Below are positions 5,630 to 54,069 of a stretch of 64,000 bases of DNA, piece after piece. A program made the translations under genes and the position numbers. The DNA is from an uncultured virus (IMG/VR IMGVR_UViG_3300009152_002325) (taxonomy: Duplodnaviria > Heunggongvirae > Uroviricota > Caudoviricetes), in IMG/VR virus record IMGVR_UViG_3300009152_002325; one strand, 5' to 3'. Every line of letters begins with the position of its first letter. Within the stretch, counting starts at the first letter, position 1. The notes beneath the pieces were generated by a model. That model was not told where the DNA came from. It saw nothing but the letters and a program-made list of their open reading frames with translations, and made no database searches.

Positions 5630-5860
5630 CTATTTATCGTCTTTTCTAAGTGGTATAGTTATTAGCCAAATTACAGTAGTTATTAATACTGCAATTCCAA
5701 CAATATCTCTAGCTGAGCCCGTCAAAGTTAGCCATGCGATAAAGAAGCCTAGGAGGGTGAATGCCTGGGCAATTAGCTCCATTCCCGCGTCTTTAAACCA
5801 TTTAGCCAAGCCCTTAATTGCCTTGCCTATAAGATTAAACATCTTTTTGATTATCTTCAT
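5630..5860 (-). CDS. Small two-TM membrane protein
   Basis: Two hydrophobic segments, GGAGG RBS. Confidence 0.75.
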   Translation of the reverse strand: MKIIKKMFNLIGKAIKGLAKWFKDAGMELIAQAFTLLGFFIAWLTLTGSARDIVGIAVLITTVIWLITIPLRKDDK

Positions 5861-8025
5861 TTGTTCCTCCTTATGACTGCCCCTGCAATTTGTGATACGA
5901 TGATCACTGGGACAATTACTTCTTGCGCTTTTTCTCTCTGATCATCTGTCATGTCCATACCTAATTCAGAGAAATTAGATAGTAGTTCTACTGGGTCCAC
6001 CGCAAATACAGTTCCAAGCGGGTCTGCCAAGAATGCTTCTGCTTGCACTTCTGTTGTTGCATCTGCTAATGTAAATGGCATTGGGGTATCTCCTGCATCC
6101 ACCGCTCTTTCTGCAAACTCAACAAATGCTTCTGCAACTGCAGGATCTGATTTCATTGCCTCTGCGACCTTTGCGACTTCTGCTGTAGAAATACCAAGGT
6201 CTGCTGCAACTTCAGCCTTTGCCTCTTGTGTTAAAGACTTAAGTGTTTGGCTAACTGCTGCTGTTTGCTCAACAGAAAGTTTAACTAATTTATTGTCCTT
6301 GCTTGTAAGGTTTGCTATAACTCCAGAAAGATCTTCTGAATTTCCTGTACCCTTTTGTGGGATAAGTGCTGCCAATTCTGCATCCTTAATTACTGGATCA
6401 ATATTTTCTGCTGGCTTGAAGTCTGGTCTTGGAAGTGGTTTAGGCTCTGGAGAAGGCTCAACAGGAGGCTCTGGAGAAGGCTCTGGCTTTGGTTCAGGAC
6501 TTGGGGAAGGGGTAGGTTTAGGCTCTTCTGGCTTTGGCTTATCTGTTGGTTCTGGCTTTGGCTTATCGGTAGGCTCTGGCTTTGGCTTATCTGTTGGTTC
6601 TGGCTTAGGCTCAGGCTCTGTGGGCTTTGGACCTGGCTGTGTAGGCTTTGGTCCTGGTTCTTCTGTAGCAGTATTGTTAGTTGGCTTAGGCTCAGGCTTA
6701 TCTGTTGGTGGGGGAGAAGGTTTTGGCTTTTCTGGTTCAGCAGTTGGCTTTGTGGAAGGTTCTGGTTTTGGTTGGTTTGCTGCAGCATTGGCTGCTGCTT
6801 GAGCAATTGCTCTTTGAATTTCTCTTTGTGATTGTTCATCATAGTAACGCCATGCGTCATCAATGGCGCTATTCACATCAAGGACTGCGTTGTTAAAATT
6901 GGATATGGAATTATTTTTTTCAGATAAAGCGTCTTCTGTATCGTTAACAGCATTTTCATACTCAGATGTTTTATTGGTTAACTCCTGATTATATGAATTT
7001 AATGTTGCAACTTCTTGATTATATACATTTAGTTTATCATTATATTCCTGCTGTGCTGATTGCTTTGCACCTAGTGCTGCTTGATACTCAGCAGTCTGTG
7101 TTGCAGTTGGTCCAGATCCAGAAGAAAATGTGTTTAAATTACAACTAAAGTTTTGTCCCCACACTCTTGGATTTCCAGCATAGTCACAACCTGCTCCAGT
7201 CCATCCTCCAGGAATTCCCCATCCAAGATGATAGGATCCTGGCCCTCCACCGTTGTACCACCAAATCTCTACATCAAAAACTTTATCGCTTGTTACATCA
7301 TATACAGGAGAATAAGCACTCCAAGTTGTTCCTTGCTCCCGCCAATTATTAATCGCAAGTTCTCCATCAATGTACATTCTAAAACCATCATCTGTATATC
7401 CTGCAAAGTATGCCTGTGTAAACCATGAAGGAACTGTTATCTGTCCAGTAAATTTAACAATAAAATTCTGATACCGATTTCCACAAACTGGCAGTTGCAT
7501 ATAGTTTGAATTCCATGTACCACTACATAGCAATTGATCTGTGGCTGCTTGCCCATTAACTCTAATCAGGCTATAAACATCGTATTGTAGTCCTGCCACA
7601 CCAGAATTATTTAAGGCTTGTTGGGCTGTTTGTAGATTAATGTTGGCTATACTAAGGGCATCGTAGGCATTATCTCTATGTTCAAGGGCTAGGGCTACTG
7701 TTGCTGTCTGTCCGTCTACATTTGACTGGGCAAGATCCATATCTTCTAAAGATATTTCTTCTGCATCTACTGCATCTTCGTAGGCTTCATAGGCAGCATC
7801 TCTAACATCCCGCAGATTTTTAGCATACATAAACTTATTTTCTGCTATGTCAATCATATTAATTAGACCGTCTTTATAGTCTAGCTTATCTACGGCTGAA
7901 TTTAAATTTTCAATCTTTTTTGCGGCTATTGTTAGGGGATCATCAGAATACGCGGGGGACATAAAAAGCCATCCAAATGCAAGCATTGTGGCTGCTGTTA
8001 TTCTAAATAACTTATTCCTTGTCAA
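5857..8025 (-). CDS. Secreted, membrane-anchored PA14-domain protein with coiled coil and Pro-rich stalk
   Basis: Signal peptide; FIVKFTGQI...TDDGFRMYIDG...INNW..Q...WYNGGG PA14 motifs; PEPK repeats; C-terminal hydrophobic segment + RRNK. Confidence 0.82.
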   Translation of the reverse strand: MTRNKLFRITAATMLAFGWLFMSPAYSDDPLTIAAKKIENLNSAVDKLDYKDGLINMIDIAENKFMYAKNLRDVRDAAYEAYEDAVDAEEISLEDMDLAQSNVDGQTATVALALEHRDNAYDALSIANINLQTAQQALNNSGVAGLQYDVYSLIRVNGQAATDQLLCSGTWNSNYMQLPVCGNRYQNFIVKFTGQITVPSWFTQAYFAGYTDDGFRMYIDGELAINNWREQGTTWSAYSPVYDVTSDKVFDVEIWWYNGGGPGSYHLGWGIPGGWTGAGCDYAGNPRVWGQNFSCNLNTFSSGSGPTATQTAEYQAALGAKQSAQQEYNDKLNVYNQEVATLNSYNQELTNKTSEYENAVNDTEDALSEKNNSISNFNNAVLDVNSAIDDAWRYYDEQSQREIQRAIAQAAANAAANQPKPEPSTKPTAEPEKPKPSPPPTDKPEPKPTNNTATEEPGPKPTQPGPKPTEPEPKPEPTDKPKPEPTDKPKPEPTDKPKPEEPKPTPSPSPEPKPEPSPEPPVEPSPEPKPLPRPDFKPAENIDPVIKDAELAALIPQKGTGNSEDLSGVIANLTSKDNKLVKLSVEQTAAVSQTLKSLTQEAKAEVAADLGISTAEVAKVAEAMKSDPAVAEAFVEFAERAVDAGDTPMPFTLADATTEVQAEAFLADPLGTVFAVDPVELLSNFSELGMDMTDDQREKAQEVIVPVIIVSQIAGAVIRRNK
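6527..6606. repeat. 24-bp tandem repeat (3.3 copies) encoding PEPTDKPK
   Basis: TCTGGCTTTGGCTTATCTGTTGGT units at 6527, 6551 (variant), 6575. Confidence 0.9.
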
Positions 8026-41500: not shown

Positions 41501-41876
41501 GAGCAAGCCAGTATTTATACGTCATCTCTGAGCCAGGATAATATAGTCTAGGCTTGCCCAAAAAAGCTACATCCCTAGGATTTTCATACAAATCTTGACG
41601 TGGTGAGTCTGTTTGTTTTTTAGTTACAGGATCCTGTGTATAAACTAAATATTTAATTCCTGGAGCTAATGGTCTAAAAGGTTTATATATTGTATCTATT
41701 GGAAACAACTTTTTAAAAGCAGCTGAATATGTATTAACTATATCTGCTGGGGTAGTTGTTGCTTTTATATATTCAACCATGGAGTTTAAGTTATATTCCA
41801 TTGTTGCGCTTGCAGAAATTGGTATTGATGACCCCCGCTTAATTAAATTCTTAGTTGTATCGCTTACGGTTATCAT
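38580..41876 (-). CDS. Large minor tail (hub/Tal-like) protein
   Basis: 1098 aa, second gene after TMP; VWEVLQELC..., GNPLISAGDIV hub-like motifs. Confidence 0.72.
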   Translation of the reverse strand: MITVSDTTKNLIKRGSSIPISASATMEYNLNSMVEYIKATTTPADIVNTYSAAFKKLFPIDTIYKPFRPLAPGIKYLVYTQDPVTKKQTDSPRQDLYENPRDVAFLGKPRLYYPGSEMTYKYWLAPKNTNISVSLEYFSNEAKTTVKLVPANKIVARFETNHDTPLSWTISGVKEDNTVISVSGTTLNSSGEAVIYYNGTAWSTDEPDEYTTTEYLKKITLTATNRMNGKLLGVIELSPRWVVSLDSDIVSFTVNKETTADSDSIVPVGVITANYLSLSLFRQHGDTSRSIMEYNVKESIDNTKLYLFKNAIIKPYLNIGEGESLEKVTQGVFYTNSWTLSEFGEASIDATDAAKILQDTMCPQLLVQDSPVTSVIKRVLDSVGFSTYNINIKMTDGKVDDDSIPSLFYWWCDGDKTVWEVLQELCRDIQMNAFVDENNILNFYSRNVIYDATTPSSWVFTDKEIKSGDVVDYAPSIASLSSREIFSANQVTVRYSSASTSVNSTSSQPLWTSSDSFLGAGRLADDIVDSSPMFKLIPNTVNSERIDKVLDAFSGYVLINDEIIEYDGLWYQYVPAVGGSPVRVLMKSQSDFWKYEALAKPGSKYFYPTGEYNIKTRNALGTSKKDHKKSLTSYVNGIGENDANKFKSYSIKLATPDIAKETVPPGYITAPANSKLDSIAKSFITVSSLDKDKKSFNLLLKPFNTINTGSLYMACGTRMFFDSQLVSPSQVGGIAFCLDSTGQNGYYVLVRTTAYALLENDIMIVKVQNGKITVLKDGQQTSPKTLAGVYAGQSYNIDVIVKSQTTSGTLVKNTITVFINGFKLTAVDAGSDSTSQYIPPLTVTKNLAVHCGQGQVYFDFLYGKSIDETLYNERNRVASYKHVGSYADDTISMLYGDLIYNNANTVADQDGSLIEFGTTAREIRKVKIAYDPDERPALPIMFRTSKNPYATVLDQRLQPFSAETYILNNTSTSVVLHDSDYTTFYVLGNKISRSSAIEYKTDQSEDSQNKESVIFESSWIQNEQDAEKLANWIKSNSLNKGRFVDMTVFGNPLISAGDIVSIKYPILGMSESSAKYLVTKCTLEYSEGITTTISCRAI

Positions 41877-42469
41877 ACCTGCTCCATTGATATAGATACG
41901 CTCCAGAAGGTCTGCAAGCCTCTTTTAAGGACAGTAAAGTCACATGAGGTAAACATTACCGTATAAGTATAATCATCAGCTAAGGTTCCAGCATCAGCAG
42001 TTATTAGGGATGGATTAAATACTGTTGGATTTAGTTTTATCCTAAAAGATCCTCTTCCTGCAGCTGATTCATAAAAATTCTTTATATCTTCTGCACCCCA
42101 GCCGCCATCTACTGTTTCATTTCTAAATGATGGCAGCATTTCCCAAGATGCACTTATGTTTAGCTTATCAGCAATAAAATATTTTCTTAGAGTTCCATTT
42201 GACATTCTTTGGCTAGACTCAATTCTATTTGTAGTTATAGCAAGTGGGTCTCTATTATGCTCTGTAACTCTTCTAAATTTTAAAACCGCTCTATCCTCGT
42301 ATGGTATCGGCCAAGTTTTTGTTAGAGCATCATAGGCAGGATAAACATTTCCTGGTGGAGTAATTGTTTCACCCTTGTAGTTAAAAGTATTGTTTGCAGT
42401 ATTAATTGCAAATGGGTCAAGTGCTTCAATATATAGCACAGATCCTTTTCCTAAGTTTTGAAAACTCAT
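41873..42469 (-). CDS. Distal tail (Dit-like) minor tail protein
   Basis: First gene after TMP; RMSNGTLR, W.VSISMEQV. Confidence 0.65.
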   Translation of the reverse strand: MSFQNLGKGSVLYIEALDPFAINTANNTFNYKGETITPPGNVYPAYDALTKTWPIPYEDRAVLKFRRVTEHNRDPLAITTNRIESSQRMSNGTLRKYFIADKLNISASWEMLPSFRNETVDGGWGAEDIKNFYESAAGRGSFRIKLNPTVFNPSLITADAGTLADDYTYTVMFTSCDFTVLKRGLQTFWSVSISMEQV

Positions 42470-45400
42470 TGCCCACCAACCCTTCTATTTACTCCTGCTG
42501 CCATTTCCTTTAATCTCATTTCTCTATGTATTTGAGTTGCAACATCTTGTGCTGTTACATTAGTTCCATTTAATTCTACGTTAATATTATATACTGAACC
42601 TGATACAGCCGCCGATGCATTTGGATTAAATGGGTTCATATTGGCTGGGATAACAGCTTCATCTTTATGAAGCATTGCCAACATATTTGCAGGAACCATA
42701 TTAATTCCATTTTCAAATTGAGGTACTCCCAATCTAGAAAATGCAGTGCTTATAGAGTTAGTAAGGTTTAATCCAGTGTTGTTTATGTATCCGCCAGCTG
42801 CATCACTTGTGTGCCCATAATTATTTTCTGACCAGATGTTTGACCCTGGGCGTGAATGTGGTGCCCTATTTGCAATCGGTGGGAGATAAGGGTTTTCCCA
42901 AGCCCAAGTAGCTGGGACATCGTTGCCTTGTTTCATCAAGCGAAGTAAGTCTTTGTTATCTATCATTTCTACATAGCTTCCGTGACCAAACGGGTACGAA
43001 TTGTATGTGCGATTTGGATTTTTTCTCCATGCCATTAATGACTCGTAATGCGCTTGATCTGCTGCTTTTATAGCTAGCCTCTGCTTTTCCATACGAGCTG
43101 CATGTTGTGCATCATAGGCTAACTGAGCTTCGCTTGGTTTTGGAACAGAATATGGTGTAGGAGTATAAGGTTTTCCAGGTATTAATTTTGAACGCAATGC
43201 TGCCAGCCTGCTATTTGCAGCATTAGATACCAGGGAGGCTAAAGTAACTTTGCCAGGGGATATGAATGGCATGTTAGGCATAATTCCTCCAATTGCTTCG
43301 GAGTAACCTACACCATCTGATGTTCTTTGCTTAGAATGCTTTATTCTAGTAATAGATGCGCCGTATTCATTCATAAATCTTGCTATGCCAAGCTTTCGGT
43401 GGTTGTGGTTTACTCCTATCAATCTAATTGTTCCAGTTATAGAATCCCAAGTTATATTGCCTGCAACTGAGCCGTCTGGAGCATACACTTCGATATTGTG
43501 CATTGGGCCAACCCACTCGTTTCCGTACATATTTTCTTGGATTCCTGAAATTCCGCTTTTAAAAGTTGACTCTGGTGGGTACTGATCTATTTGAGCTGGC
43601 TTAAATTTAAATGAATAATCTCCTTTAGGTGTTGGAAATGTTCCAGTATGCTCTGTAAGATTTCTAGCTTCTTTCAAAAGATCTTCATATTTAACAGTAC
43701 CTAATTTTTCAATTGGCGTAAACTTGCCAGCCTTTGCAAGCTTCTCTGCTTTAATCATTGCTGATTCATATGGGGATAATGCAGATGGCCCTAGTAAAGT
43801 TTCTTTAATCTTGGCATTTACTTTTATAGGAGTAAAAGCATCTACTGCAATTTTTGACGTGATTGGCTTAGTGATAGGCCTTGTAAGTTTTGATGCCAGC
43901 CCAAGTCCTGGCAATACTCCAAGAACGTCTGCAGCTACACCCAGATTCTGACTTCCAAAAATTTCTGGGCTTGTTTTATTTTTTAAATTGAATGCTGAAG
44001 TGTATCCAGTTAACATTTGTGCTGTTTGTAATGCCGCTAAATCTGTTTCAGATTGATCTATTTTAGGAGCTGATATATTTTTATTAAATGCCTTACTTGC
44101 TCCAAATCCAAACATGCCATTTGTAATTGATGCAAACACGTTTGCTGGATTAAATCTGCTAAAGAAGTTTCCATGCTTATGTCCTACTGGACCGCCTTTA
44201 TGGTATCCCTTGGCTTTATCTAGGTTATAACTAGTAATATAGTCTTTGAATTTTTTATATTGTACAGAATTTGGGAGCTCTTCTGGTTTAGATACATAAG
44301 CTGCTGGATTAAATTCTTGAAGTCCTTCTTGCCACATCTGGTAAATAGTTTTTGTTTTTTCAGGCATATTTGGAGAATTATCTATAAAGCCTTTTAGGAA
44401 TTGTGGATTAAGTCTTAAAGGAAGAGCTAAAGCATTTTGCTCAAACATTCTAAAAGTTTTAAAGTATCCTCTTAAATTATCTGTTCCTAGGCCTGGACCG
44501 TATGTATTGCCAATTTTTGAAGCCAGCATTTTATCTTTTAGGCTCTTGCTATTTACAAAGTTTAGGTATGCTTTAAATGTATTTTCGTCAGCAAAGGCTT
44601 CAGCTGCTCCGTTACTCCAAGCAATGCTATCAATGTCTTTTTGGCCAATTGCATAATCTTCCCAGGTTGCAAAACCAAGACCCTTTTGCTGTTTTTCTGC
44701 ATTTACATAGACAGATTCGTATCTATCTGCTAAATCATATTTACCAGATTTGCGTAACATTTCAAGTGTTCTTTTAAATGTGTTGTGCGTTTCAAAATCA
44801 AAATGATGCATTGTTTCATGCACTGCAGTTTGACCACTTGTTTTATGATTTGAATTAAGAAGAATATGCGGAAGCAAATTTTCATAATTAGAAGATTTAT
44901 CTGCAAACCTAGGGACATACTGCCCTGCAACGTTCCATGGTAATTTTTCTTCTTTTATTGCTGGTAAAGATACATCTCCAAGCACATCTGATAAAAACTT
45001 TTGCATGTTCTTAGCACTTATATTTTTGCCCTCATACTTAGCAGCATTAAAACTAGATAAAGGACCAGTTGGTGTTAGATTAATATCTGGTGTAACTAAT
45101 TTAGATTTTGCAGCAAGACCTGGTAATTTAGTTATCTTGCTAAGCCCTCCAATAAGTGGAAGTACGCCCAATACGTCTGCTGCGGTTCCTAGCTTCTGGC
45201 TTCCAGCAATTTCTGGGCTTGTGCTATTTTTTAAATTAAAAGCAGATGTATATCCAGAAAGAAGCTGTGCTGTTTGAAGAAGCGCTCTATCTTTTTCTTG
45301 CTGAGTCATAGTAGACTGAACATTAACATTCTGGTTTACAGCCTTAGATGCACCAAAGCTAAACATGCCAGAAAGCATTGAGGATATTGAATTTACTGGA

Positions 45401-48400
45401 TTAAATCTGCTAAACCAATTACCGTTTTTATTTTTATTGCCTACTGGGCCGCCATTAGCAAAGGTTAGCCATGAACCAGCGCCATAAACACCGTTTCCAA
45501 TTCCGCTCATAGAAGCACCAGAGCCTGCGTAACGCATTGGATCCTTGTCAAGACCCATTCCTGGTCCACTATACTTAACAGGCTGCTCGGCTATCTGATG
45601 CCAGTAATCTGAACGATTAGCTATTTTTCCGTCAAACCTAAGACCTGGTATCTCTGTTCCGCCCCAGATATCTTTACCCTTAGCAGGACCGTATCTTAGC
45701 GCTCCCCATCTTTGAGTATAAGGGCTTCCTGATGGGCTTCCATCACTCCAGTAATCTGGCATATCTTCAGGATATGACTTCCATTTGAATAGAGACCCTG
45801 GTAAATTTCTTCCGTGTCTATGACCAACTGGCCCTCCCTTATGCAACCTTTGTGCGTTTAATGCATCAAGTGTCTCTACGCCGTACTTTGCAACAGAAGA
45901 TGCTTTAATTACATATTCACCATCTGAAAGCATTGCTGGAATAGAATCTGATGTTCCAGTTCCTGGGCCTGTAACCTTACCGCCGATGGCATATGTTGGA
46001 CTAGTATTTTTTACAAACTTAACAGTTCCATCATTTAAAACTATGAATTCTTTTAGAATTCCATTAGACTCTTTTAAAGTAAATTGCTGTCCTGCTTTAT
46101 ATCCCTTTTCTTTTGCAAACTTATTGATCTTTCCTTGTTGGGACGGTAGCAATGTGTTTATAAGCATATCCATACCGAATACATCCTTTGATTTTCCGCC
46201 ATATACTGTTTTAGAGGTACCTTTTAGTGCAGCAACAATTTCTTCAGTCATTGTTTTTATCGAGTAGCCTTTACCTCCAGTAATCTGAGTAGCCATACTT
46301 GATACCAAAGCAACATCTCTATCAAGGATCTTCAATATATCTTTATTTAGAGTGGTAATTGTTGTTGAGGTTACACCACTGGTTGTAGAGGCAGGTGAAC
46401 CAGGAGATTCAACATAAACTTTCTTTATTGTTCCATCTTTATTAAAGTACTGGGCAAAAGATTCTCTTATGGCTTTTGCAGTTTCACTTGATCCAGTTCC
46501 TGCTGCGCCTACTTTTTTAAGCAGGTCGCTTAGCTTACCAACAAGCTCTCCCTCCGCTTTTCTTTTTGCTTCGCTTTCTGGCATCATGCTATTTGTTATT
46601 CTTAAAGCGGTTATCTCATCGTAAGTTGCTTTAAATCCTTTAACTACATCCATAACTGCAGCAGCACTTGTTGCATTATCTTGTCTGTTTTGGAAAGCAA
46701 TTGCTTTTTTATCAGCTGCAGCTTGCTTTGCATCTATTTTCTTTTGCTCAATAGCTTTTAGTCTAGCTGCTTCATCTTGTATTGCTTTTTCAGCTAAGTC
46801 TGCCTGTCTATTAGATGTAAGCTGGTCAATGTTTATTCTTGCTCTGGCTGCACCAGAAACATCTCCACGAGCAACAGCGTCTGCATACTCTATTTGAAGT
46901 TTTTGCAATTCTAATGCATAGTTAGATGCGTCTTGAGTTGCTCTTAAAGATTCTAATTTTTTATTTTTTTCATCTTCAATAAGGCTAATTTTTTTAGCAA
47001 TTAATTTTATTTCTTCTTGAATGTTTCTTTGTGAAACAGCAGCTGCTTTTTGTGAAGCAGCAGAGGTAGCTAAAATTGATTCTTGTAGTCTTTTTAATAC
47101 TTTACCAGTTGCTCCATATGTATTTTCACTATTGCCAGCAGCAGTTAAATCAGCAATTCCTGATCCAATTGCTGCAGTAAATCCAGCTAGCTTTATAGCT
47201 AAATCAGCATCAATACTCTTTAAGTCAATACTGATTCCAGAAGTAAACAGTTTAGTTTTTGCTATAATTGACTTTAATGTATCAAACTCATTTATAATCT
47301 TTTCTAGCTCTGGGCTCATCTCTTTCAAAGTCTGGTAAGTATCTTTGCCAATTGGAATATTAAATTCAGGTATATTCTTTTCTGTGCTTGCCAACATTGT
47401 TTGATATGCTTCAAACTCATCAATAAGATCTCCTTGAGCATTTTTTGTTCCAATGAGCGCTTGAGTGCCTGCGTTAACTATGCCAATCATGCTTTCAAAA
47501 CCAGATACCACCGCCTTTTTCTGTGCGTTAGCATCTGCAAAAGTTTGACCATAGCTATCAAATAGGTTCGTTGAGAAACTAATTGGATTAAGCAGATCGC
47601 TTGGTTGAAAGTCAATATTGTCTTTCCACAAAGAAAATGATGATTTATTTCCATTTATGGTTTTTACTAAGTTGCCAACAGCAAATTCTGCCGCAGAAGA
47701 TTTGTCTTCAATTGCGCCGAAGCCTTGATCGGCTAGCAACTTATAAGCCTGGGAGGCCTTTTTACTATTAGCAATAGCTCCATAAATCATCGAGTTTGCT
47801 TGCTCTACGCTTAATCCTCCTGCAACATATTGTGCTTTTTGATTATTTATTAATCTTTGAAGTTCTCCTGTGCTTGAAGTTCTATTAATTGATTCAATTA
47901 AGTCTTTAAGAACCTTGCCCTCTTCTTTTGCTTTTTTCATTTCATCTACAGACTGAGGTATGCCAGGCATACCGATTGAGTTATTTTTTGATCCCTGAGC
48001 AGCAGCATTTGCTAATTTTTGCTTTTCAATATAGTCTGAAAGGTACTGATTAAGATTAAAGTATTTAATTCCAGCTTGTTCGGCACCATCTGCAGTAATA
48101 GATAAACCCATTGCAGCATCTTGCTGAGCATTGTTGTATTTCTTCCATACATCAAGCCCTGTCAAAACAATTGCTAGAACTGTACCAAGGGCTTTAAACT
48201 TTGTAACAAAGTTACTGGCAGAAGCGCCTACTGCAGAAATTGCATCTTTAACACTTTTAAAAGCTTTAATTGATGCCACTACAGAAGTTGTGGTTGACTT
48301 TACTGCGCTTCCCATTGTTTTCCATGGCAACATAGGAATTATAGTGGTGGCACCCATAAGAGCTAATCCAGCCGTCATCCCGCTCATACCCAAAACTTTT

Positions 48401-51400
48401 TCCTGTTGCATTAATGACATGGCGCCCATAGAGCCAGCCATTCCGATACCCATTTGGGCACCCATGCCCATTCCGCCTCTTACCCTAGTGTCAATTCCTG
48501 CGGCTTTTGCAGCCTTTGTGTCATAGATCTTGCCACTTGCATCCATGAACTCTCTGCGTCTATAGCCATAAGTTCCTACTTTACGACTCTTGACTCCATC
48601 TTCTCCAGAGTCTTTCCAAGCGCCAACTGCTCCAACGTTTCCTACACCAGCGCCTGGGCCAGACATATACATAGGCATCATTTGTCCTGGATATGCGGCA
48701 GACAGCCTCTTAGACTGCTCTCTTAAAATTCCTTCTCTAATAGTTCTTGTAGTTGTTCTTGCAGAGTTTATTCGTTCTTTTGCATAATCTGCATAAGCTG
48801 AACTCAGATATTTTCCTGAATTCATAATTCCGTATCTTAATCCTACTGTGCCTAATTTAATTGAGTCAGTTAAAGATTTAAAAGATTTAGTTATTCCTGC
48901 TGGAAGCTGACCAATTTGTGAAAGTCTTAAGGTGTTTATAGCCTGCTGAGATTGTCCAGTTTGCGATGCACCAAATGCGTTTCCAAAAACTCCAGCTCCG
49001 CCAACATAAGGAATTTGTTGTACTTGCATTTGAGGATTACCCGAAGCTGTATATCCAGATCTAGATACAGGTGTTACTGATCGCTCAGCCTTTAATCTTT
49101 CCTGCTGAGCTCTTTTTGCTGGATTTCCTGATACTCTAGATCCATCTTTTTTACGTCCATAAGCATATCTACTTCTTTGAACAGGGCCTCCACCAACTGG
49201 GCCTCCAGCATTAAGATATTTTGGATTAACGTGCATTGCATGATACTTAGACCAATCAACATCCATTCCTTCTTCAAATCTCTTAAGCAATGCATCATAA
49301 GGCTTTCTATCTTTTTTAGGAAGAGACTTGATATATGACTTTAATTGTGGATATGCGGCTTCCATCTTTTCTTTAATCTTATCGCCATATTCTTTTGCAG
49401 TCATCTTTGCAATAATAGGAGCGGTATCACGAGCAAAATCTTTTCTAGATCCACCCTTGACTTGCAACAAGTTTGCCAGCGCCATCTCTTCCATAGAAGG
49501 CATAGTTTTTGCAAAATCATCATTCATAGATGCTTTAGCTAGGACCCCACCATTACCAACATCTGACAATCTTCTTCCGTGAACATTTGATCTAGACAAA
49601 TCTTTATTTGCAAGAATCATAGAAGCAATAAATTGATCCAGAACTTCATCTTGACTAAACTTTCCAGGCACTGATGTATTTGGATTAATGAAGCCTTCAT
49701 CGTAATCTGACTCTGCTCCAAGAAATCTAGACTTGCCAGTTGGGTCCAGTGGATTGCGAATTGATTTTGCAACTTGAACTGGAGTTTCAAGACCTAGGAT
49801 TCTTCCAATTTCTGTTCCACGCATTTCTGCTGTTAAGCTAGGTTCATTTGGAACCGCTTTAAAGAACACCTTTTTCTTTTCTTCGTTTTGATAAACCCCA
49901 GCAACTCCAGGAACTGGGAAACTTCTTCCTGTGCTTGGTGTTAGCAAATGACTATACGATGCTGGAATATATCCAGCAGGCGTTACAGCTGACATTTCAC
50001 GAGCTTGCTGCAAAATCTTAAGTTGTTGTGCTGGTGCTAATAGTCTTAGAGCTGGTGATACAAATCCATAATTTTTTCTGCTTCTTGATATATGACCACC
50101 TGGAATCATTCCGCCAGAATTCCATGCTCCCGATACAAGAACTGGTCTTGGAGGTCTTCCAGCCAATATCCATTTTGATCTTTTTACTGCTGCTTCTAAA
50201 AGCATGCCTAAAGAATTTTTTTGATCTTTATTTGCTCTTACTACTCTGCCAGATTCCCAGTCAGCCTTGCTTTTAATTTTCCCATCATCTTGTAGTGCTG
50301 CATATATATCGTCTACGCTTGCAAACTTGTCCAAACCTGTTTTCTTTAATGCTATGGCAAGGTTTTCTTTTGCATCTGCTGAACTTAAGTTTAAAACATC
50401 TCTTGATAACCCTATAGTTTCAAGTGTGCTCATTACATTATTTATACCAGCAGGTATTACAGCACCAACCCCCATATAACCACTGGTTGTATACCCAACT
50501 AAATCTTTACGTGCAAAATGTGCTTTGTCGTGCAGTCCACCAATAGATGGGGACCCATCAGATGCATTTAAAAATGTTGTTGGAGCAATTGCTGCTATAA
50601 GATCATGCACTCCAGCAAATTTTTTATTTGCTAGCATTGCTTTTCTAACGTCATTTAGTTGCCAGTTTAAAGCTTTGCTACTACTTCTTGGGTATACCGT
50701 TTTCCCATCTTTTTCGAAGCCCTCTGCATCTTTAACACGGGGAACCATGCCATCTCTTTCTAGTCCCTGGACCTGCTTAATTCTTATTTTTACAAAATTT
50801 TCATCGCTTCCGCCAGCTTGAGCCTTAGCCTTATCAAAATTGCTTGTTGCAATATTTATAGCTTTATCAATTGGCAACTTATTGTGATAAGATAATTCAG
50901 CGGCGTCAAGCATGATCATTCTTACTCTTATATCATCTTCATATCTTGGGTTATTAATAAACTTTAGATACTCTCTATACTGTCTCTTAAAGTTTTGTTC
51001 TTTCATTCTAGCTTGAGCAGATTTAGACATCTTTTTACCGTATGAATTTACGCCCTTCATTATCTGCCCGCCAAAACTATATCCGTTATTGGCTGCATCC
51101 ACTGCTGCATATAGATCAGGCATTCTTTGTATCTGAGGACCAAAGACTGTTTCCCGTGGAGTAAGTGCTGCTGTTATGCTTCCGCCATCGTTTAAGTAGG
51201 TAGATGGAGCCATTGCAACTAATGCAGCATTTGCTGGATCCATTGAGGCTTGCTGATTTAAAACATATCCGCCTAGAGGAACGCTTCCCAATCTATCATC
51301 ATAACCAATTGAAGAAGGTCCAGAAACCATAGTCTTGCTTGGACCAAATGATTCTATGTCTCCACCGATGTTAAACTTAGGCAGCCTTGTTGTCTGAATA

Positions 51401-54069
51401 CTATATGGTGCTCCAAAAGTTCTAACACCACGTAGTCTTCCAAATTCTTCCATGACAGAAGCATTTGTTTTTTTCTTATAAAGATCTCTTAATGTAAACT
51501 GACCATTTGCATCAACAACTGGTTGGTCCATCATAGGAGCTCTTGTTAAATCAATTCTTCTTCCTCGACCAGCGGCATATGCTGTTACTGCAGAGCCCAT
51601 ATCTGCTTCTATCTGTGCATTAAGTGCAAGTATTCTTGCCTTAGCTTGCTCAACTGTTATTTCTGCATTTCTCATTTGTTGCACAATAGATGCTGATTGC
51701 GTTGCGGCACTATCTGCAAATCTTTTAGTTATAGGCAGAATATCATCAAATGTGTCTAGCAGCTCTGCGCTTACAGTTCCACCCATAGCAATTGTCTTTT
51801 TGAGCATTGCAACTTCTTGTTCTGTCTGCATTCCTAGTGTTGCCATTAATGCATGGAACTTAGCTGCTTCTCCTGGAACAATTCCTGTTGATATTCCCTT
51901 TACGCTTGTTAGTCCTTCAATGTTTGGAAGCCTATCGTGCATGTACATTTGAGGAGTTCTTGATATGCCTCTATTAACTGGGATAGCTCCTGGGACTCCG
52001 CCAAATATAGTTGCAGGATTATTTAGATCTCTTGGTCTAATATGAGACATTGCTCTAGTGTTAGGATCTCCAACATATGGATCGTTAGGGTCTACAACTC
52101 TTCTTCCGCCAACCATCACTGGGTTACCAGCAACAGTGCTAACTCCTCCATTTACTGGAACTGCATTTTTCATTGATGCCGCTTGTAGACTTTGATAATC
52201 TAAAACAAGCTTTTGTAACGCATTGTGAAGAACTTGAGCTGCTGCTGCATCTGAATAAAATGCATTTTCAACCATAAGTGCTGCTTTTTCAGCAGCAATA
52301 ATTTCTGGAGTAAGCATCTTCCAGCCATTGGCCTTCATAAAGAATGCTCTTAGTTGAACAACTCCCTTAGTTATATATCCAAAGAAGTTTGCAAGCACAC
52401 CAGTTAACATAATAAGAGGACCAACCAGTGCTGTAAATCCAGCTAAAAATGTTAATCCCTTTTTAATTGGGTCAGGCAACTTAGTAAAGAAATCTAAAAT
52501 CTTTGTAGCTGCGCTTATAAGCTTGGTAGCAACTCCAAGAAACTCTTCTCCAACATCTGCAAGCTCTGCTTTAAGGCCTTCTATAGCCCTCTTGTATTTA
52601 CCAGATGCGGACTCTGTAACCATTTTTAATTCTCGGCTAGCAACTGCTGCTAAATCTGAAGTGCTTGCTTTCATTAAATCTAAAACTTGAAGAGTCTGGC
52701 TACCCTGCTTTCCTAAGTTGTTAAGCAATGCGCTCATTCTTGCAAATTGGAACTTACCAAACATTTGCTCCATTGCTCTTGCTTTACTTAATGGATCTAA
52801 ACCATCAAGAGCTTTCTGCAAATCCATAAGCAAGCCAGTTGTATTTCCAGTATTTTTTGCAACCATTCCCATTACATCTATGCCAAAATCTGACATCATG
52901 CCAACTGTTTGTTTTGTTGGGTTAATAAGTGATGCTAGACCAGACTTTAAAGCATTGGCGCCTTCTGATGCGCTAATTCCACCTTCTCTCATTGCAGTTA
53001 AATAGAGAGCTAAATCTTTAACACTTCCTCCAAGCTGTTGAATTACTGGTCCAGCTTTTGGGATAGCCTCTACTAGGTCATTAAGAGTTGTTGAAGTTTG
53101 GTTTTCAACTGCGTTGAGAAAGTTAATTGATTCAGTTAGTTGTTGAGTATTTTGCTTAAAAGCTGTCTGAATAGAAAGAGTTGCTTTCATTGCATCTTGT
53201 CTATCTACTTCACCGAGTATTGCTAGTCTTGTTGTTTCTGCAATTGATCCAAGGAGCTCGTCACCAGTTTGTCCTGTTGCCGCGATATCAGCACCTAGCG
53301 CAATAGTTTCTTTAAAAGATGCACCCATTGTCTTAGATAAAACTTTTGCTGTTTCAACAACTTCTTCTCTAATTGCTCTTAAATCTGAAGCGGATGTAGC
53401 TGCAAGACCGCCATAAACTTTTGTTAATCTTACAAGCTCTGCGTCTGCTTCTCTAAATGCTTTTCCAGCTGCCGCTCCAAACATAGTTAGAGGAACTGTG
53501 AGTCCTACGGTAAGCTGTCTACCTGCCCACTGAGTATTTTTACCCCAGTTAATTAAAGACCCTGCTCCTTCAGATAATGCACGATTCATAATCTGCATTT
53601 CCATGCGAGCTAATTTTCCGCTATTTGCTATTGCATCTAAGCCTCTAGGAATCATTACATTGTATTGCATTAAACCTTGAGCATTTCTGCCCAGAGGTTG
53701 CAGTACTGAATTTTGAAGCATTACCTGTTCTTTGGCAAGCTCCCTGATCATACCCTTTTGAGTTGTAGAGTGCTCTCTAAATGTTTGGAAATAGTTCTTA
53801 AGCTTTAGTCTACCAGCATCTAAGTTTTTACCAAATTTATCTACATCAGAATTAAGGTTTACAAAGTGGCTGGAGAACTGTCCGCTTCCAGTTAAGGTAT
53901 CTCTGAATAGATTATTTGCTAATTTTGTTGAAGAAGATATTGCTTTGTTTGATGCAAGGAGTTCTCTTTGTAGTTGCTGGAGACTAGCACTAGCCCTGTG
54001 TACTTCAGACACAAGGCTAGACAAGTCGGCTTTGGCGACTATACTGGTTACAATTTGTTCGTCAGCCAT
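42466..54069 (-). CDS. Giant tape measure protein with embedded enzyme-like domains
   Basis: Follows frameshifted chaperones; TP901-like N-terminal TMP core (GRQLTVGLTVPL, EGANALKS.L..L.NP); GPGTGTSDSIPAMLSDGEYVI motif; 3867 aa. Confidence 0.93.
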   Translation of the reverse strand: MADEQIVTSIVAKADLSSLVSEVHRASASLQQLQRELLASNKAISSSTKLANNLFRDTLTGSGQFSSHFVNLNSDVDKFGKNLDAGRLKLKNYFQTFREHSTTQKGMIRELAKEQVMLQNSVLQPLGRNAQGLMQYNVMIPRGLDAIANSGKLARMEMQIMNRALSEGAGSLINWGKNTQWAGRQLTVGLTVPLTMFGAAAGKAFREADAELVRLTKVYGGLAATSASDLRAIREEVVETAKVLSKTMGASFKETIALGADIAATGQTGDELLGSIAETTRLAILGEVDRQDAMKATLSIQTAFKQNTQQLTESINFLNAVENQTSTTLNDLVEAIPKAGPVIQQLGGSVKDLALYLTAMREGGISASEGANALKSGLASLINPTKQTVGMMSDFGIDVMGMVAKNTGNTTGLLMDLQKALDGLDPLSKARAMEQMFGKFQFARMSALLNNLGKQGSQTLQVLDLMKASTSDLAAVASRELKMVTESASGKYKRAIEGLKAELADVGEEFLGVATKLISAATKILDFFTKLPDPIKKGLTFLAGFTALVGPLIMLTGVLANFFGYITKGVVQLRAFFMKANGWKMLTPEIIAAEKAALMVENAFYSDAAAAQVLHNALQKLVLDYQSLQAASMKNAVPVNGGVSTVAGNPVMVGGRRVVDPNDPYVGDPNTRAMSHIRPRDLNNPATIFGGVPGAIPVNRGISRTPQMYMHDRLPNIEGLTSVKGISTGIVPGEAAKFHALMATLGMQTEQEVAMLKKTIAMGGTVSAELLDTFDDILPITKRFADSAATQSASIVQQMRNAEITVEQAKARILALNAQIEADMGSAVTAYAAGRGRRIDLTRAPMMDQPVVDANGQFTLRDLYKKKTNASVMEEFGRLRGVRTFGAPYSIQTTRLPKFNIGGDIESFGPSKTMVSGPSSIGYDDRLGSVPLGGYVLNQQASMDPANAALVAMAPSTYLNDGGSITAALTPRETVFGPQIQRMPDLYAAVDAANNGYSFGGQIMKGVNSYGKKMSKSAQARMKEQNFKRQYREYLKFINNPRYEDDIRVRMIMLDAAELSYHNKLPIDKAINIATSNFDKAKAQAGGSDENFVKIRIKQVQGLERDGMVPRVKDAEGFEKDGKTVYPRSSSKALNWQLNDVRKAMLANKKFAGVHDLIAAIAPTTFLNASDGSPSIGGLHDKAHFARKDLVGYTTSGYMGVGAVIPAGINNVMSTLETIGLSRDVLNLSSADAKENLAIALKKTGLDKFASVDDIYAALQDDGKIKSKADWESGRVVRANKDQKNSLGMLLEAAVKRSKWILAGRPPRPVLVSGAWNSGGMIPGGHISRSRKNYGFVSPALRLLAPAQQLKILQQAREMSAVTPAGYIPASYSHLLTPSTGRSFPVPGVAGVYQNEEKKKVFFKAVPNEPSLTAEMRGTEIGRILGLETPVQVAKSIRNPLDPTGKSRFLGAESDYDEGFINPNTSVPGKFSQDEVLDQFIASMILANKDLSRSNVHGRRLSDVGNGGVLAKASMNDDFAKTMPSMEEMALANLLQVKGGSRKDFARDTAPIIAKMTAKEYGDKIKEKMEAAYPQLKSYIKSLPKKDRKPYDALLKRFEEGMDVDWSKYHAMHVNPKYLNAGGPVGGGPVQRSRYAYGRKKDGSRVSGNPAKRAQQERLKAERSVTPVSRSGYTASGNPQMQVQQIPYVGGAGVFGNAFGASQTGQSQQAINTLRLSQIGQLPAGITKSFKSLTDSIKLGTVGLRYGIMNSGKYLSSAYADYAKERINSARTTTRTIREGILREQSKRLSAAYPGQMMPMYMSGPGAGVGNVGAVGAWKDSGEDGVKSRKVGTYGYRRREFMDASGKIYDTKAAKAAGIDTRVRGGMGMGAQMGIGMAGSMGAMSLMQQEKVLGMSGMTAGLALMGATTIIPMLPWKTMGSAVKSTTTSVVASIKAFKSVKDAISAVGASASNFVTKFKALGTVLAIVLTGLDVWKKYNNAQQDAAMGLSITADGAEQAGIKYFNLNQYLSDYIEKQKLANAAAQGSKNNSIGMPGIPQSVDEMKKAKEEGKVLKDLIESINRTSSTGELQRLINNQKAQYVAGGLSVEQANSMIYGAIANSKKASQAYKLLADQGFGAIEDKSSAAEFAVGNLVKTINGNKSSFSLWKDNIDFQPSDLLNPISFSTNLFDSYGQTFADANAQKKAVVSGFESMIGIVNAGTQALIGTKNAQGDLIDEFEAYQTMLASTEKNIPEFNIPIGKDTYQTLKEMSPELEKIINEFDTLKSIIAKTKLFTSGISIDLKSIDADLAIKLAGFTAAIGSGIADLTAAGNSENTYGATGKVLKRLQESILATSAASQKAAAVSQRNIQEEIKLIAKKISLIEDEKNKKLESLRATQDASNYALELQKLQIEYADAVARGDVSGAARARINIDQLTSNRQADLAEKAIQDEAARLKAIEQKKIDAKQAAADKKAIAFQNRQDNATSAAAVMDVVKGFKATYDEITALRITNSMMPESEAKRKAEGELVGKLSDLLKKVGAAGTGSSETAKAIRESFAQYFNKDGTIKKVYVESPGSPASTTSGVTSTTITTLNKDILKILDRDVALVSSMATQITGGKGYSIKTMTEEIVAALKGTSKTVYGGKSKDVFGMDMLINTLLPSQQGKINKFAKEKGYKAGQQFTLKESNGILKEFIVLNDGTVKFVKNTSPTYAIGGKVTGPGTGTSDSIPAMLSDGEYVIKASSVAKYGVETLDALNAQRLHKGGPVGHRHGRNLPGSLFKWKSYPEDMPDYWSDGSPSGSPYTQRWGALRYGPAKGKDIWGGTEIPGLRFDGKIANRSDYWHQIAEQPVKYSGPGMGLDKDPMRYAGSGASMSGIGNGVYGAGSWLTFANGGPVGNKNKNGNWFSRFNPVNSISSMLSGMFSFGASKAVNQNVNVQSTMTQQEKDRALLQTAQLLSGYTSAFNLKNSTSPEIAGSQKLGTAADVLGVLPLIGGLSKITKLPGLAAKSKLVTPDINLTPTGPLSSFNAAKYEGKNISAKNMQKFLSDVLGDVSLPAIKEEKLPWNVAGQYVPRFADKSSNYENLLPHILLNSNHKTSGQTAVHETMHHFDFETHNTFKRTLEMLRKSGKYDLADRYESVYVNAEKQQKGLGFATWEDYAIGQKDIDSIAWSNGAAEAFADENTFKAYLNFVNSKSLKDKMLASKIGNTYGPGLGTDNLRGYFKTFRMFEQNALALPLRLNPQFLKGFIDNSPNMPEKTKTIYQMWQEGLQEFNPAAYVSKPEELPNSVQYKKFKDYITSYNLDKAKGYHKGGPVGHKHGNFFSRFNPANVFASITNGMFGFGASKAFNKNISAPKIDQSETDLAALQTAQMLTGYTSAFNLKNKTSPEIFGSQNLGVAADVLGVLPGLGLASKLTRPITKPITSKIAVDAFTPIKVNAKIKETLLGPSALSPYESAMIKAEKLAKAGKFTPIEKLGTVKYEDLLKEARNLTEHTGTFPTPKGDYSFKFKPAQIDQYPPESTFKSGISGIQENMYGNEWVGPMHNIEVYAPDGSVAGNITWDSITGTIRLIGVNHNHRKLGIARFMNEYGASITRIKHSKQRTSDGVGYSEAIGGIMPNMPFISPGKVTLASLVSNAANSRLAALRSKLIPGKPYTPTPYSVPKPSEAQLAYDAQHAARMEKQRLAIKAADQAHYESLMAWRKNPNRTYNSYPFGHGSYVEMIDNKDLLRLMKQGNDVPATWAWENPYLPPIANRAPHSRPGSNIWSENNYGHTSDAAGGYINNTGLNLTNSISTAFSRLGVPQFENGINMVPANMLAMLHKDEAVIPANMNPFNPNASAAVSGSVYNINVELNGTNVTAQDVATQIHREMRLKEMAAGVNRRVGGQ

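Follow-up and report, generated by a model that had tools for sequence, protein, structure and literature searches.

Exchangeable enzyme-like cassettes behind a conserved module in the giant tape measure protein of a lake siphophage

Two modules and two cargos in a tape measure protein

The DNA analysed here is a stretch of 64,000 nucleotides (hereafter, the window) from the uncultured virus record IMGVR_UViG_3300009152_002325 in IMG/VR. A single open reading frame (ORF) of 3867 aa on its minus strand (42466..54069) holds the entire finding reported below; all features given by window coordinates lie on this strand unless they are called antisense. Judging by its sequence, this ORF is a tape measure protein (TMP) of the TP901 type, with PF10145 at aa 240-438 (E 3.2e-26) and TIGR01760 at E 2.2e-26. 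Its C-terminal part contains two copies of a module of ~105 residues, each followed by a different enzyme-like domain, which we refer to as cargo. Module copy 1 (45145..45462, aa 2870-2975) consists of a GG joint, an N-terminal helix, a near-invariant GYTSAFNLKN core (45208-45255) and a hydrophobic C-terminal end. It is followed by cargo 1 (44206..45144, aa 2976-3288), a basic linker with a predicted zincin-like metallopeptidase. Module copy 2 (43897..44205, aa 3289-3391), which belongs to another module lineage than copy 1, precedes cargo 2 (43225..43896, aa 3392-3615), which comprises a linker, a helical segment and a putative minimal core of a GNAT acetyltransferase. The first-pass annotation, made from the sequence of the window alone, had proposed a different enzyme domain after each copy, and zincin-like and GNAT-like are indeed different enzyme-like domains. 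Absent from that annotation was the point that both modules and both cargos are in-frame internal parts of the TMP and not separate genes.

The modules and cargos lie in a bay that makes up the C-terminal third of the TMP. The bay opens with a conserved joint domain (45847..45993, aa 2693-2741; GGxV-GPGT-SDSIPA-GEYV) that matches 23 PHROG families, mostly tape measure proteins, and has sequence matches to two solved phage TMPs (PDB 8zdo and 8rk3). Next comes cassette 0 (45463..45846, aa 2742-2869), a G/P/W-rich segment of 128 aa that had no Pfam or PHROG match and is found with 50-98% identity in 11 other TMPs. Many relatives have it, and it frequently abuts the module on the N-terminal side; P0017 is among those in which the joint domain leads straight into the module, with no cassette 0. 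Cassette 0, module 1 with cargo 1, and module 2 with cargo 2 each open with an xxxGGxV joint. After the GNAT core lies a segment (42718..43224, aa 3616-3784) that is present only in this phage and three close relatives (pN 0.066 and pS 0.274 against L003, for nonsynonymous and synonymous differences). The bay is closed by a conserved C-terminal TMP domain of 83 aa (42469..42717), which has PHROG TMP matches and is 90-100% identical in close relatives with other cargo. Its start at 42717 is the right-hand breakpoint described below.

The module is conserved as a protein

Both copies of the repeat claimed in the first-pass annotation were recovered, with the peptides it quoted and with coordinates at most 2 nt off. 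As proteins, they share 63.8-65.7% identity, and their local alignment score is 350, compared to 38 ± 6 (maximum 69) for 200 shuffles. As DNA, they share 74% identity over 141 nt at a spacing of 1248. Because single contigs cover both copies in three of the four sequencing runs examined, which come from different studies, the two-copy arrangement is not a product of misassembly. In an alignment of 49 distinct module rows, columns are conserved at a mean of 95% at residues 71-80, 84% at residues 91-100, 62% at residues 101-110 and 24% at residues 111-120. The peak is the GYTSAFNLKN core, and the value of 24% is reached ten residues beyond DVLGVLP, which bears out the earlier observation that similarity ends after this motif.

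The dN/dS of the module is ~0.12-0.28, with synonymous sites near saturation. By this measure the module is conserved as a protein and is under purifying selection. As DNA identity between module lineages is only ~68-78% while the protein is under purifying selection, the module is not kept merely as a stretch of DNA homology. In both copies, the last 18-mer of the module ranks at the 99.6th percentile of hydrophobicity within the TMP. Searches with the module found no significant match in Pfam, PHROGs or NCBIfam, and nothing above 0.84 in the ESM Atlas.

Cargo is exchanged behind the module

To compare the cargos across relatives, we pooled 41 proteins (a 64-aa fragment was omitted) with 11 of the 21 true module loci, the others being duplicates of kept rows, and removed identical rows. 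The pooled set contains 51 sequences with 56 modules, two copies being present in 5 of the 51. After a 214-aa fragment had been dropped, 55 cassettes were classified. Cargo classes were defined by homology with profiles derived from these 55 cassettes; the profiles replaced a sorting by regular expressions that had misfiled several rows. The first domain after the module falls into seven classes: an ADP-ribosyltransferase (ART)-like class with an R-S-E motif (14 cassettes), zincin (11), HST (8), GNAT (6), GPGxY (6), kinase-like (5) and HGG (5). With up to three domains per cassette, there are 12 architectures. The labels ART-like and kinase-like are our assumption from motifs seen in the alignments, which no library search confirmed, and both names therefore stay at the motif level. 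As an internal control, we considered nine other head families that adjoin a joint and have at least three members. Eight of these are followed by one tail class and one by two, whereas the module is followed by 11.

On the module tree, the cargo class changes 14 times (minimum 6), and exchange is also visible between TMPs that are otherwise nearly identical. P0004, L013 and P0002 are 97-99% identical to this TMP in their N-terminal cores and 90-100% in their C-termini, whereas their cargos are only 24-33% identical. DNA identity to L013 and L008 (BLASTN) ends at 45201, inside module 1, and returns at 42717. In run X19, the junctions of one contig are at 42717/44178 and 44208/45201, in agreement with these positions. 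P0016 retains 92-100% identity over the whole module and drops to 12-40% in cargo windows, with the switch right after the module. In P0023 the switch lies inside the module: identity is 56-72% over its first 75 residues, rises to 96% where it ends and is 76-92% in the cargo. The first-pass annotation had described the module as a pre-cargo junction with cargo swapping, and seven first-domain classes in 55 cassettes, with unlike cargo on near-identical backbones, agree with this. From these comparisons, it is close to certain that cargo has been exchanged by recombination behind the module, and the data support the module as a crossover anchor.

The breakpoints, which cluster in and just after the module, would also fit a module that is a structural spacer or assembly element, such as a tail chaperone site or a site of TMP oligomerisation, and that anchors crossovers through its conservation; the cargos would then be delivered, if at all, as plain parts of the TMP, and the module would not lead them. 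Strong protein conservation is compatible with any structural role, and homologous GNAT, kinase-like and ART-like domains occur without the module too (11 of 73 profile matches). However, the module is found in one phage group only and is absent from other TMPs. It occurs once or twice, at 385 to 2268 residues from the C-terminus in the 55 non-fragment cassettes, and an enzyme-like domain follows it in all 55, the cassettes from which the classes were defined. We regard a structural role of this kind as unlikely, although it is the strongest competitor to a module that leads exchangeable enzyme cassettes.

The two copies belong to different module lineages

The first-pass annotation had proposed that cassettes were added in tandem by duplication. 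For the lineage of this phage, the phylogeny speaks against it. Copy 1 groups with P0004, L013, P0017 and others (support 98/88), and copy 2 groups with P0007, L021, P0040 and P0042 (100/98). A single clade of both copies and their close relatives, a group that was named after the tree had been seen, is rejected in the approximately unbiased test (AU p = 0.013). The synonymous divergence (dS) between the copies is ~1.1, near saturation and similar to that between different phages. As the copies belong to different lineages, copy 2 was most likely acquired by recombination; the copies are paralogues that were most likely united by the acquisition of a second unit and not by a recent duplication in place. 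P0014 also carries two copies, in an arrangement that is independent of this one and has another second cassette.

Cargo 1 resembles a zincin-like metallopeptidase

Cargo 1 contains a GxY strand, an HExxH motif (44806-44820) and a downstream Glu (in 44587-44607) that is the probable third zinc ligand. All 12 aligned rows, some of them only ~25% identical in the cargo, keep the H, E and H without change, and the Glu is nearly invariant. Against members of MPTase-PolyVal, a single chosen target, the cargo 1 profile reached an HHalign probability of 75% (E 2.5e-5) and the strands align. We therefore predict that cargo 1 is a zincin-like metallopeptidase. A stand-alone zincin homologue of 152-487 aa was not found among 522 candidates.

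A protease within a TMP could also act on the TMP itself. The cassettes might function outside the cytoplasm or during assembly, with the zincin maturing the TMP at the GG joints and the other cargos acting on the envelope. For polyvalent zincins, autoproteolysis has been proposed (PMC5512222), and wall hydrolases embedded in TMPs are known from mycobacteriophages (PMC1796659). CHAP, LysM and OmpA domains are present elsewhere in the TMPs of relatives. However, the zincin profile is found in only 14 places in the 51 joint-bearing sequences, so it cannot be a general maturase. Moreover, acetyl-CoA, ATP and NAD+, which GNAT, kinase and ART folds require, are cytoplasmic. We consider it improbable that the cassettes act in this way, rather than as enzymes that enter the host cytoplasm.

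Cargo 2 resembles a minimal GNAT acetyltransferase

In cargo 2, the GNAT core spans ~aa 3472-3582 and includes an RxxGxA motif at 43381-43401. We take R/Q-x-x-G-x-G/A to be the acetyl-CoA motif of GNATs; it reads RKLGIA here and QKLGLA in P0015, and is degenerate in the L013 type. In the ESM Atlas, cargo 2 scored 0.94 to viral Acetyltransf_1 clusters. In a fold search (VIA), the top 20 of 50 rows were all acetyltransferases at Z 5.1-6.3, the best of them (Z 6.3) with a root-mean-square deviation of 2.8 over 81 aligned residues. The top Foldseek matches were GNATs as well, the best at E 0.013. These scores are moderate; they support a GNAT core fold for cargo 2, in a minimal form. The module and a GNAT form a single unit in P0034 and P0036.

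The enzyme core of cargo 2 appears to vary. One contig of run X10 carries a diverged allele in place of the GNAT core (window 43395-43541), and P0015 shares 83% identity with this TMP over the first 250 cargo residues, compared to 94-100% in the flanks. Because of this allele and this identity pattern, we suggest that the enzyme core of cargo 2 is diversifying. A second leader family (L013:11216-11780, also in P0004, P0016 and P0037) stands before a GNAT homologous to cargo 2 and ends in a similar hydrophobic xxPGxG turn. This second type (L013/P0004) is akin neither to the module nor to the pre-toxin family PT-TG, with HHalign probabilities of 0.9% and 0.2%.

The catalytic motifs of the cargos are intact. 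This bears on the idea that the cassettes are neutral filler, acquired fragments that merely lengthen the tail, for which one could cite cargos too divergent for any library match. Such fragments would not be expected to look as these do: catalytic residues are retained at ~25% identity, the module and the cargo are under purifying selection, and the same two-cassette form recurs in several lake studies. We give neutral filler hardly any credence.

Distribution of the module

As far as found, the module is limited to giant TMPs, or fragments of them, of one phage group. Locus searches returned 17 module loci in IMG/VR, four true and two spurious ones in metagenomes and one spurious one in GTDB. 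The spurious loci (L022, L023 and L024) were rejected at 14.5-18.6 bits, compared to 159-187 bits for the true ones; L024 is the end part of a bacterial protein that is unrelated. Among 1.84 billion representative proteins, the module had nine matches, namely eight proteins of 2289-3891 aa and the 64-aa fragment. It is present in 37 of 135 long-protein candidates, including the TMP studied here. Of these 37, 33 have PF10145, and the other four are without all or most of the N-terminal core. No match was found in 50,697 GenBank phage records. Among proteins of 203-2000 aa, the 8000 scored candidates contained two TMP fragments, which is weak evidence on the shorter size range. The module is thus not a generic TMP repeat, and the cargo behind it is not constant; the first-pass annotation had named the opposite of either as evidence against its proposal.

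In the literature we found no description of the module or of a swappable enzyme bay in the TMPs of freshwater phages, in a search that covered openly accessible papers and few subscription papers. What is new here is an unannotated family of ~105 aa, a putative leader, that differs from other TMP segments in pairing with many unrelated enzyme-like domains and that marks crossover points. Enzymes fused to TMPs, as well as polyvalent proteins, were already known.

Genomic setting and host

The window comes from the genome of a tailed phage, a lake siphophage. Genes on its minus strand encode portal, prohead protease, capsid, tail tube, DnaE, RecA, DnaB and primase. Within the siphophage structural cluster, the TMP gene follows a Phage_TTP_17-like tail tube gene and two small ORFs at the chaperone position. 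In all 13 loci examined, a conserved tail gene comes after it. In the window this gene (41873..42469, 198 aa) is at the distal tail gene position, overlaps the TMP stop and had no Pfam match. The nearest relative on record, G001, is a 116.5-kb virus contig that is 97% complete. As G001 encodes a WhiB (E 3.3e-13), the host is probably an actinobacterium; the same search over 14 control genomes had Corynebacterium as its sole match. Ghai and colleagues reportedly described ADP-ribosyltransferases in freshwater actinophages in 2017. Among 20 sequencing runs that contain this DNA, the labels of 17 read freshwater or lake water and those of three only metagenome; four of the 20 may be where the window originated.

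Further cassettes lie in this TMP and its relatives. A mid-TMP cassette with kinase-like motifs (window 49216-50124, aa 1316-1618) has a Lys motif at 49849-49869, a catalytic-loop-like motif at 49582-49608 and a DxG motif at 49546-49566. Many relatives have this cassette at 35-98% identity, with no module in front. A second swappable slot precedes it (window 50125-51081, aa 997-1315). This slot shares ~30% identity over 110 aa with L003 and L013, though the cores are 98-99% identical, and 79-97% with P0002, L008 and P0004. Other TMP cassettes in relatives include OmpA (L014:11546-12412 and P0042), CHAP (L017:5723-10001), a weak LysM (P0023) and a cytidylyltransferase-like domain (P0017). Elsewhere in the window, an ORF of 722 aa (5857-8025) has a PA14 domain and a compositionally skewed middle part of higher GC content. 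The TMP P0024 is labelled by NCBI as a protein of a cyanobacterial metagenome-assembled genome and lies on a 116.8-kb contig, which is probably a phage contig binned into that genome.

The module is not a pre-toxin domain

The first-pass annotation had likened the module to the PT-TG pre-toxin junction of polymorphic toxins. This kinship was not found: PF14449 matched none of 13 module rows at E <= 10, and HHalign of the module against PT-TG gave probabilities of 1.7% and 1.5%, with only six PT-TG members aligned. The TGE(K)L-type TG motif is absent from the module consensus, whereas PT-TG members show invariant G, T, R and A around TGE/TGQ. The wider likeness to polymorphic toxins stood in part. 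A variable enzyme domain does follow a constant region, but the cargo is internal, an adjacent immunity gene is lacking and the records searched have no orphan copies. Immunity genes and a C-terminal toxin are defining for polymorphic toxins (PMC3482391, PMC5576092). The cargo here is never C-terminal, as the conserved C-terminal TMP domain follows the bay. We looked for an immunity gene next to the TMP and in the frames over the module. The next tail gene directly follows the TMP in 13 of 13 loci and, as it overlaps the TMP stop, leaves no room for one. No alternative frame over the module is conserved, and neither is an antisense ORF at 45005-45277. In this respect the first-pass annotation, to which no immunity gene was apparent, was right. 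Orphan module copies outside the TMP were absent from the three records searched, which include the 116.5-kb genome and of which two are at least 90% complete.

A true polymorphic toxin with a PT-TG-like domain would imply that virion-borne toxins kill non-immune bacteria or poison grazers. Besides the constant region followed by variable enzyme domains, a hydrophobic LPxxG turn at the module end is loosely PT-TG-like, and metallopeptidase and ART domains occur in MuF toxins as well (PMC5576092). On the other hand, no nuclease class was recognised among the cargos, and a tyrosine integrase was found in neither of two near-complete genomes, whereas MuF toxins are described as confined to temperate phages (PMC5576092). 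Together with the missing PT-TG match, C-terminal cargo, immunity slot and orphan copies, this makes a toxin role very improbable, and as a claim of family membership it is largely refuted. The system functions like a polymorphic slot and is not a member of the polymorphic-toxin class.

A model for delivery of the cargo

We lean slightly towards the following chain as a whole: exchangeable enzyme cassettes occupy a bay of the TMP, the module serves as their leader, and active enzymes are delivered to the host. The TMP would then carry an array that resembles polyvalent proteins, with the module also acting as a delivery leader for host-modifying enzymes. The cassette unit consists of a short GG joint, the ~105-aa module, a basic linker and one to three enzyme-like domains. 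Related phages recombine what stands behind the module: on the left the breakpoints fall within the module or where it ends, on the right at the following GG joint or at the C-terminal domain. An entire second unit can also be gained, as appears to have happened in this phage, and the module itself is conserved as a protein. By analogy with T5 and lambda, the TMP would be built into the tail and cut, perhaps at the GG joints, releasing pieces of module plus cargo. At infection, these pieces would exit the tail before the DNA does; the module, non-globular and hydrophobic at its end, would lead the cargo across the host membrane into the cytoplasm. There, the enzymes (a zinc protease and a protein acetyltransferase, both predicted, in this phage; kinase-like and ADP-ribosyltransferase-like domains in relatives) could modify host proteins early and so contribute to cell takeover or blunted defence, as has been proposed for polyvalent proteins.

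Several results weigh against this chain. The cargo class follows the module tree far beyond chance; as 14 changes are observed compared to 31-40 on shuffled data, swaps are occasional, so that cargo is mostly inherited and swaps, though repeated, are not frequent. A homologous GNAT stands behind an unrelated leader in four relatives, and the module is therefore not required for a GNAT cargo. The module has no 19-residue window above a Kyte-Doolittle value of 1.5 (maxima 1.27 and 1.37) and its end is no classical transmembrane helix. AlphaFold gave pLDDT < 50 for the module in both models, from alignments of 12 and 9 rows. Neither cargo 1 nor cargo 2 has a match in Pfam, PHROG, NCBIfam or PDB sequences. 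The zincin fold has a three-stranded sheet and two helices; the AlphaFold model of cargo 1 lacks the N-terminal sheet (pLDDT < 50 at model residues 167-207) and fold searches with it gave no match, so the name zincin rests on sequence. The GNAT fold scores are middling (Z 6.3, and none at E <= 0.001 in Foldseek). Searching PDB sequences with profiles of the ART-like, kinase-like, HST and zincin classes returned nothing credible, and PF18760 (ART-PolyVal) and PF03496 found nothing in five records. Finally, the joint profile scores T5 pb2 no better than shuffles.

A narrower proposal sees in the module a phage-encoded leader dedicated to translocation, which as a portable tag would route any enzyme fused behind it through the siphophage tail and the actinobacterial membrane. 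This is possible, though we hold it only tentatively and with more doubt than confidence. If it were true, these tails would work as programmable injectors of several effectors, with a payload that phage populations in lakes reshuffle; the module would correspond, in siphophages, to the domains that load effectors into secretion systems. TMPs usually count as rulers and DNA channels. A hypervariable bay of predicted protein-modifying enzymes that is bounded and has a conserved leader suggests that long-tailed phages with freshwater actinobacterial hosts may pre-load and exchange enzymes for host takeover or anti-defence. A single module profile retrieves the payload catalogue, with seven classes so far, none of which is matched by Pfam. 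The module also makes protein delivery by siphophages to the cytoplasm directly testable.

Comparison with known systems

TMP cleavage is known from T5 pb2/pb2C (bioRxiv 10.1101/2022.09.20.507954) and lambda gpH*/gpHC (PMC12617516), in both cases near the C-terminus and in a Gly-rich region. The last 92 residues of T5 pb2 (pb2C) begin at an AEGG motif that resembles the xxxGG joints of the bay, a likeness at the motif level that is not significant by profile. As these accounts describe them, the T5 and lambda TMPs undergo one cut and have no cargo.

The PT-TG polymorphic toxins (PF14449; Zhang et al. 2012, PMC3482391) and the MuF toxins (Jamet et al. 2017, PMC5576092), the latter of which are virion-associated, share with the bay a constant junction and a recombining enzyme domain. 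They differ from it in that the bay shows no kinship to PT-TG, its cargo is internal and in tandem, its carrier is a TMP, and no immunity gene, orphan cassette or integrase was found.

Enzymes inside TMPs have precedents in Thermus phage P23-45 gp96, an active virion RNA polymerase fused to the TMP (PMC10770324), and in motif 3 of mycobacteriophage TM4 (PMC1796659); both are used at infection, according to the same sources. As described there, those domains are single and fixed, for transcription and wall hydrolysis, whereas the bay is a hypervariable slot of predicted protein-modifying domains with a conserved leader.

The closest likeness is to polyvalent proteins (Iyer et al. 2017, PMC5512222), in which one late-gene polypeptide carries unrelated enzyme domains with no immunity gene. 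They are probably injected with the DNA, and zincin, ART, kinase and GNAT are among their commonest domains (PMC5512222), a repertoire that the cargo set here matches. In contrast, the carrier here is a TMP (the word 'tape' does not occur in the main text of PMC5512222), and a bounded bay holds the cargos, each preceded by a copy of a dedicated leader. The families described for polyvalent proteins include MPTase-PolyVal, ART-PolyVal, LPDs and MuF fusions. No Pfam polyvalent family matches the cargos, and PF18760 found nothing in the five records; the zincin reaches an HHalign probability of only 75% to members of MPTase-PolyVal. The features of the polyvalent type that are present here are a zincin-like domain, a GNAT and a kinase-like segment at the motif level (aa 1316-1618), combined in one late virion polypeptide.

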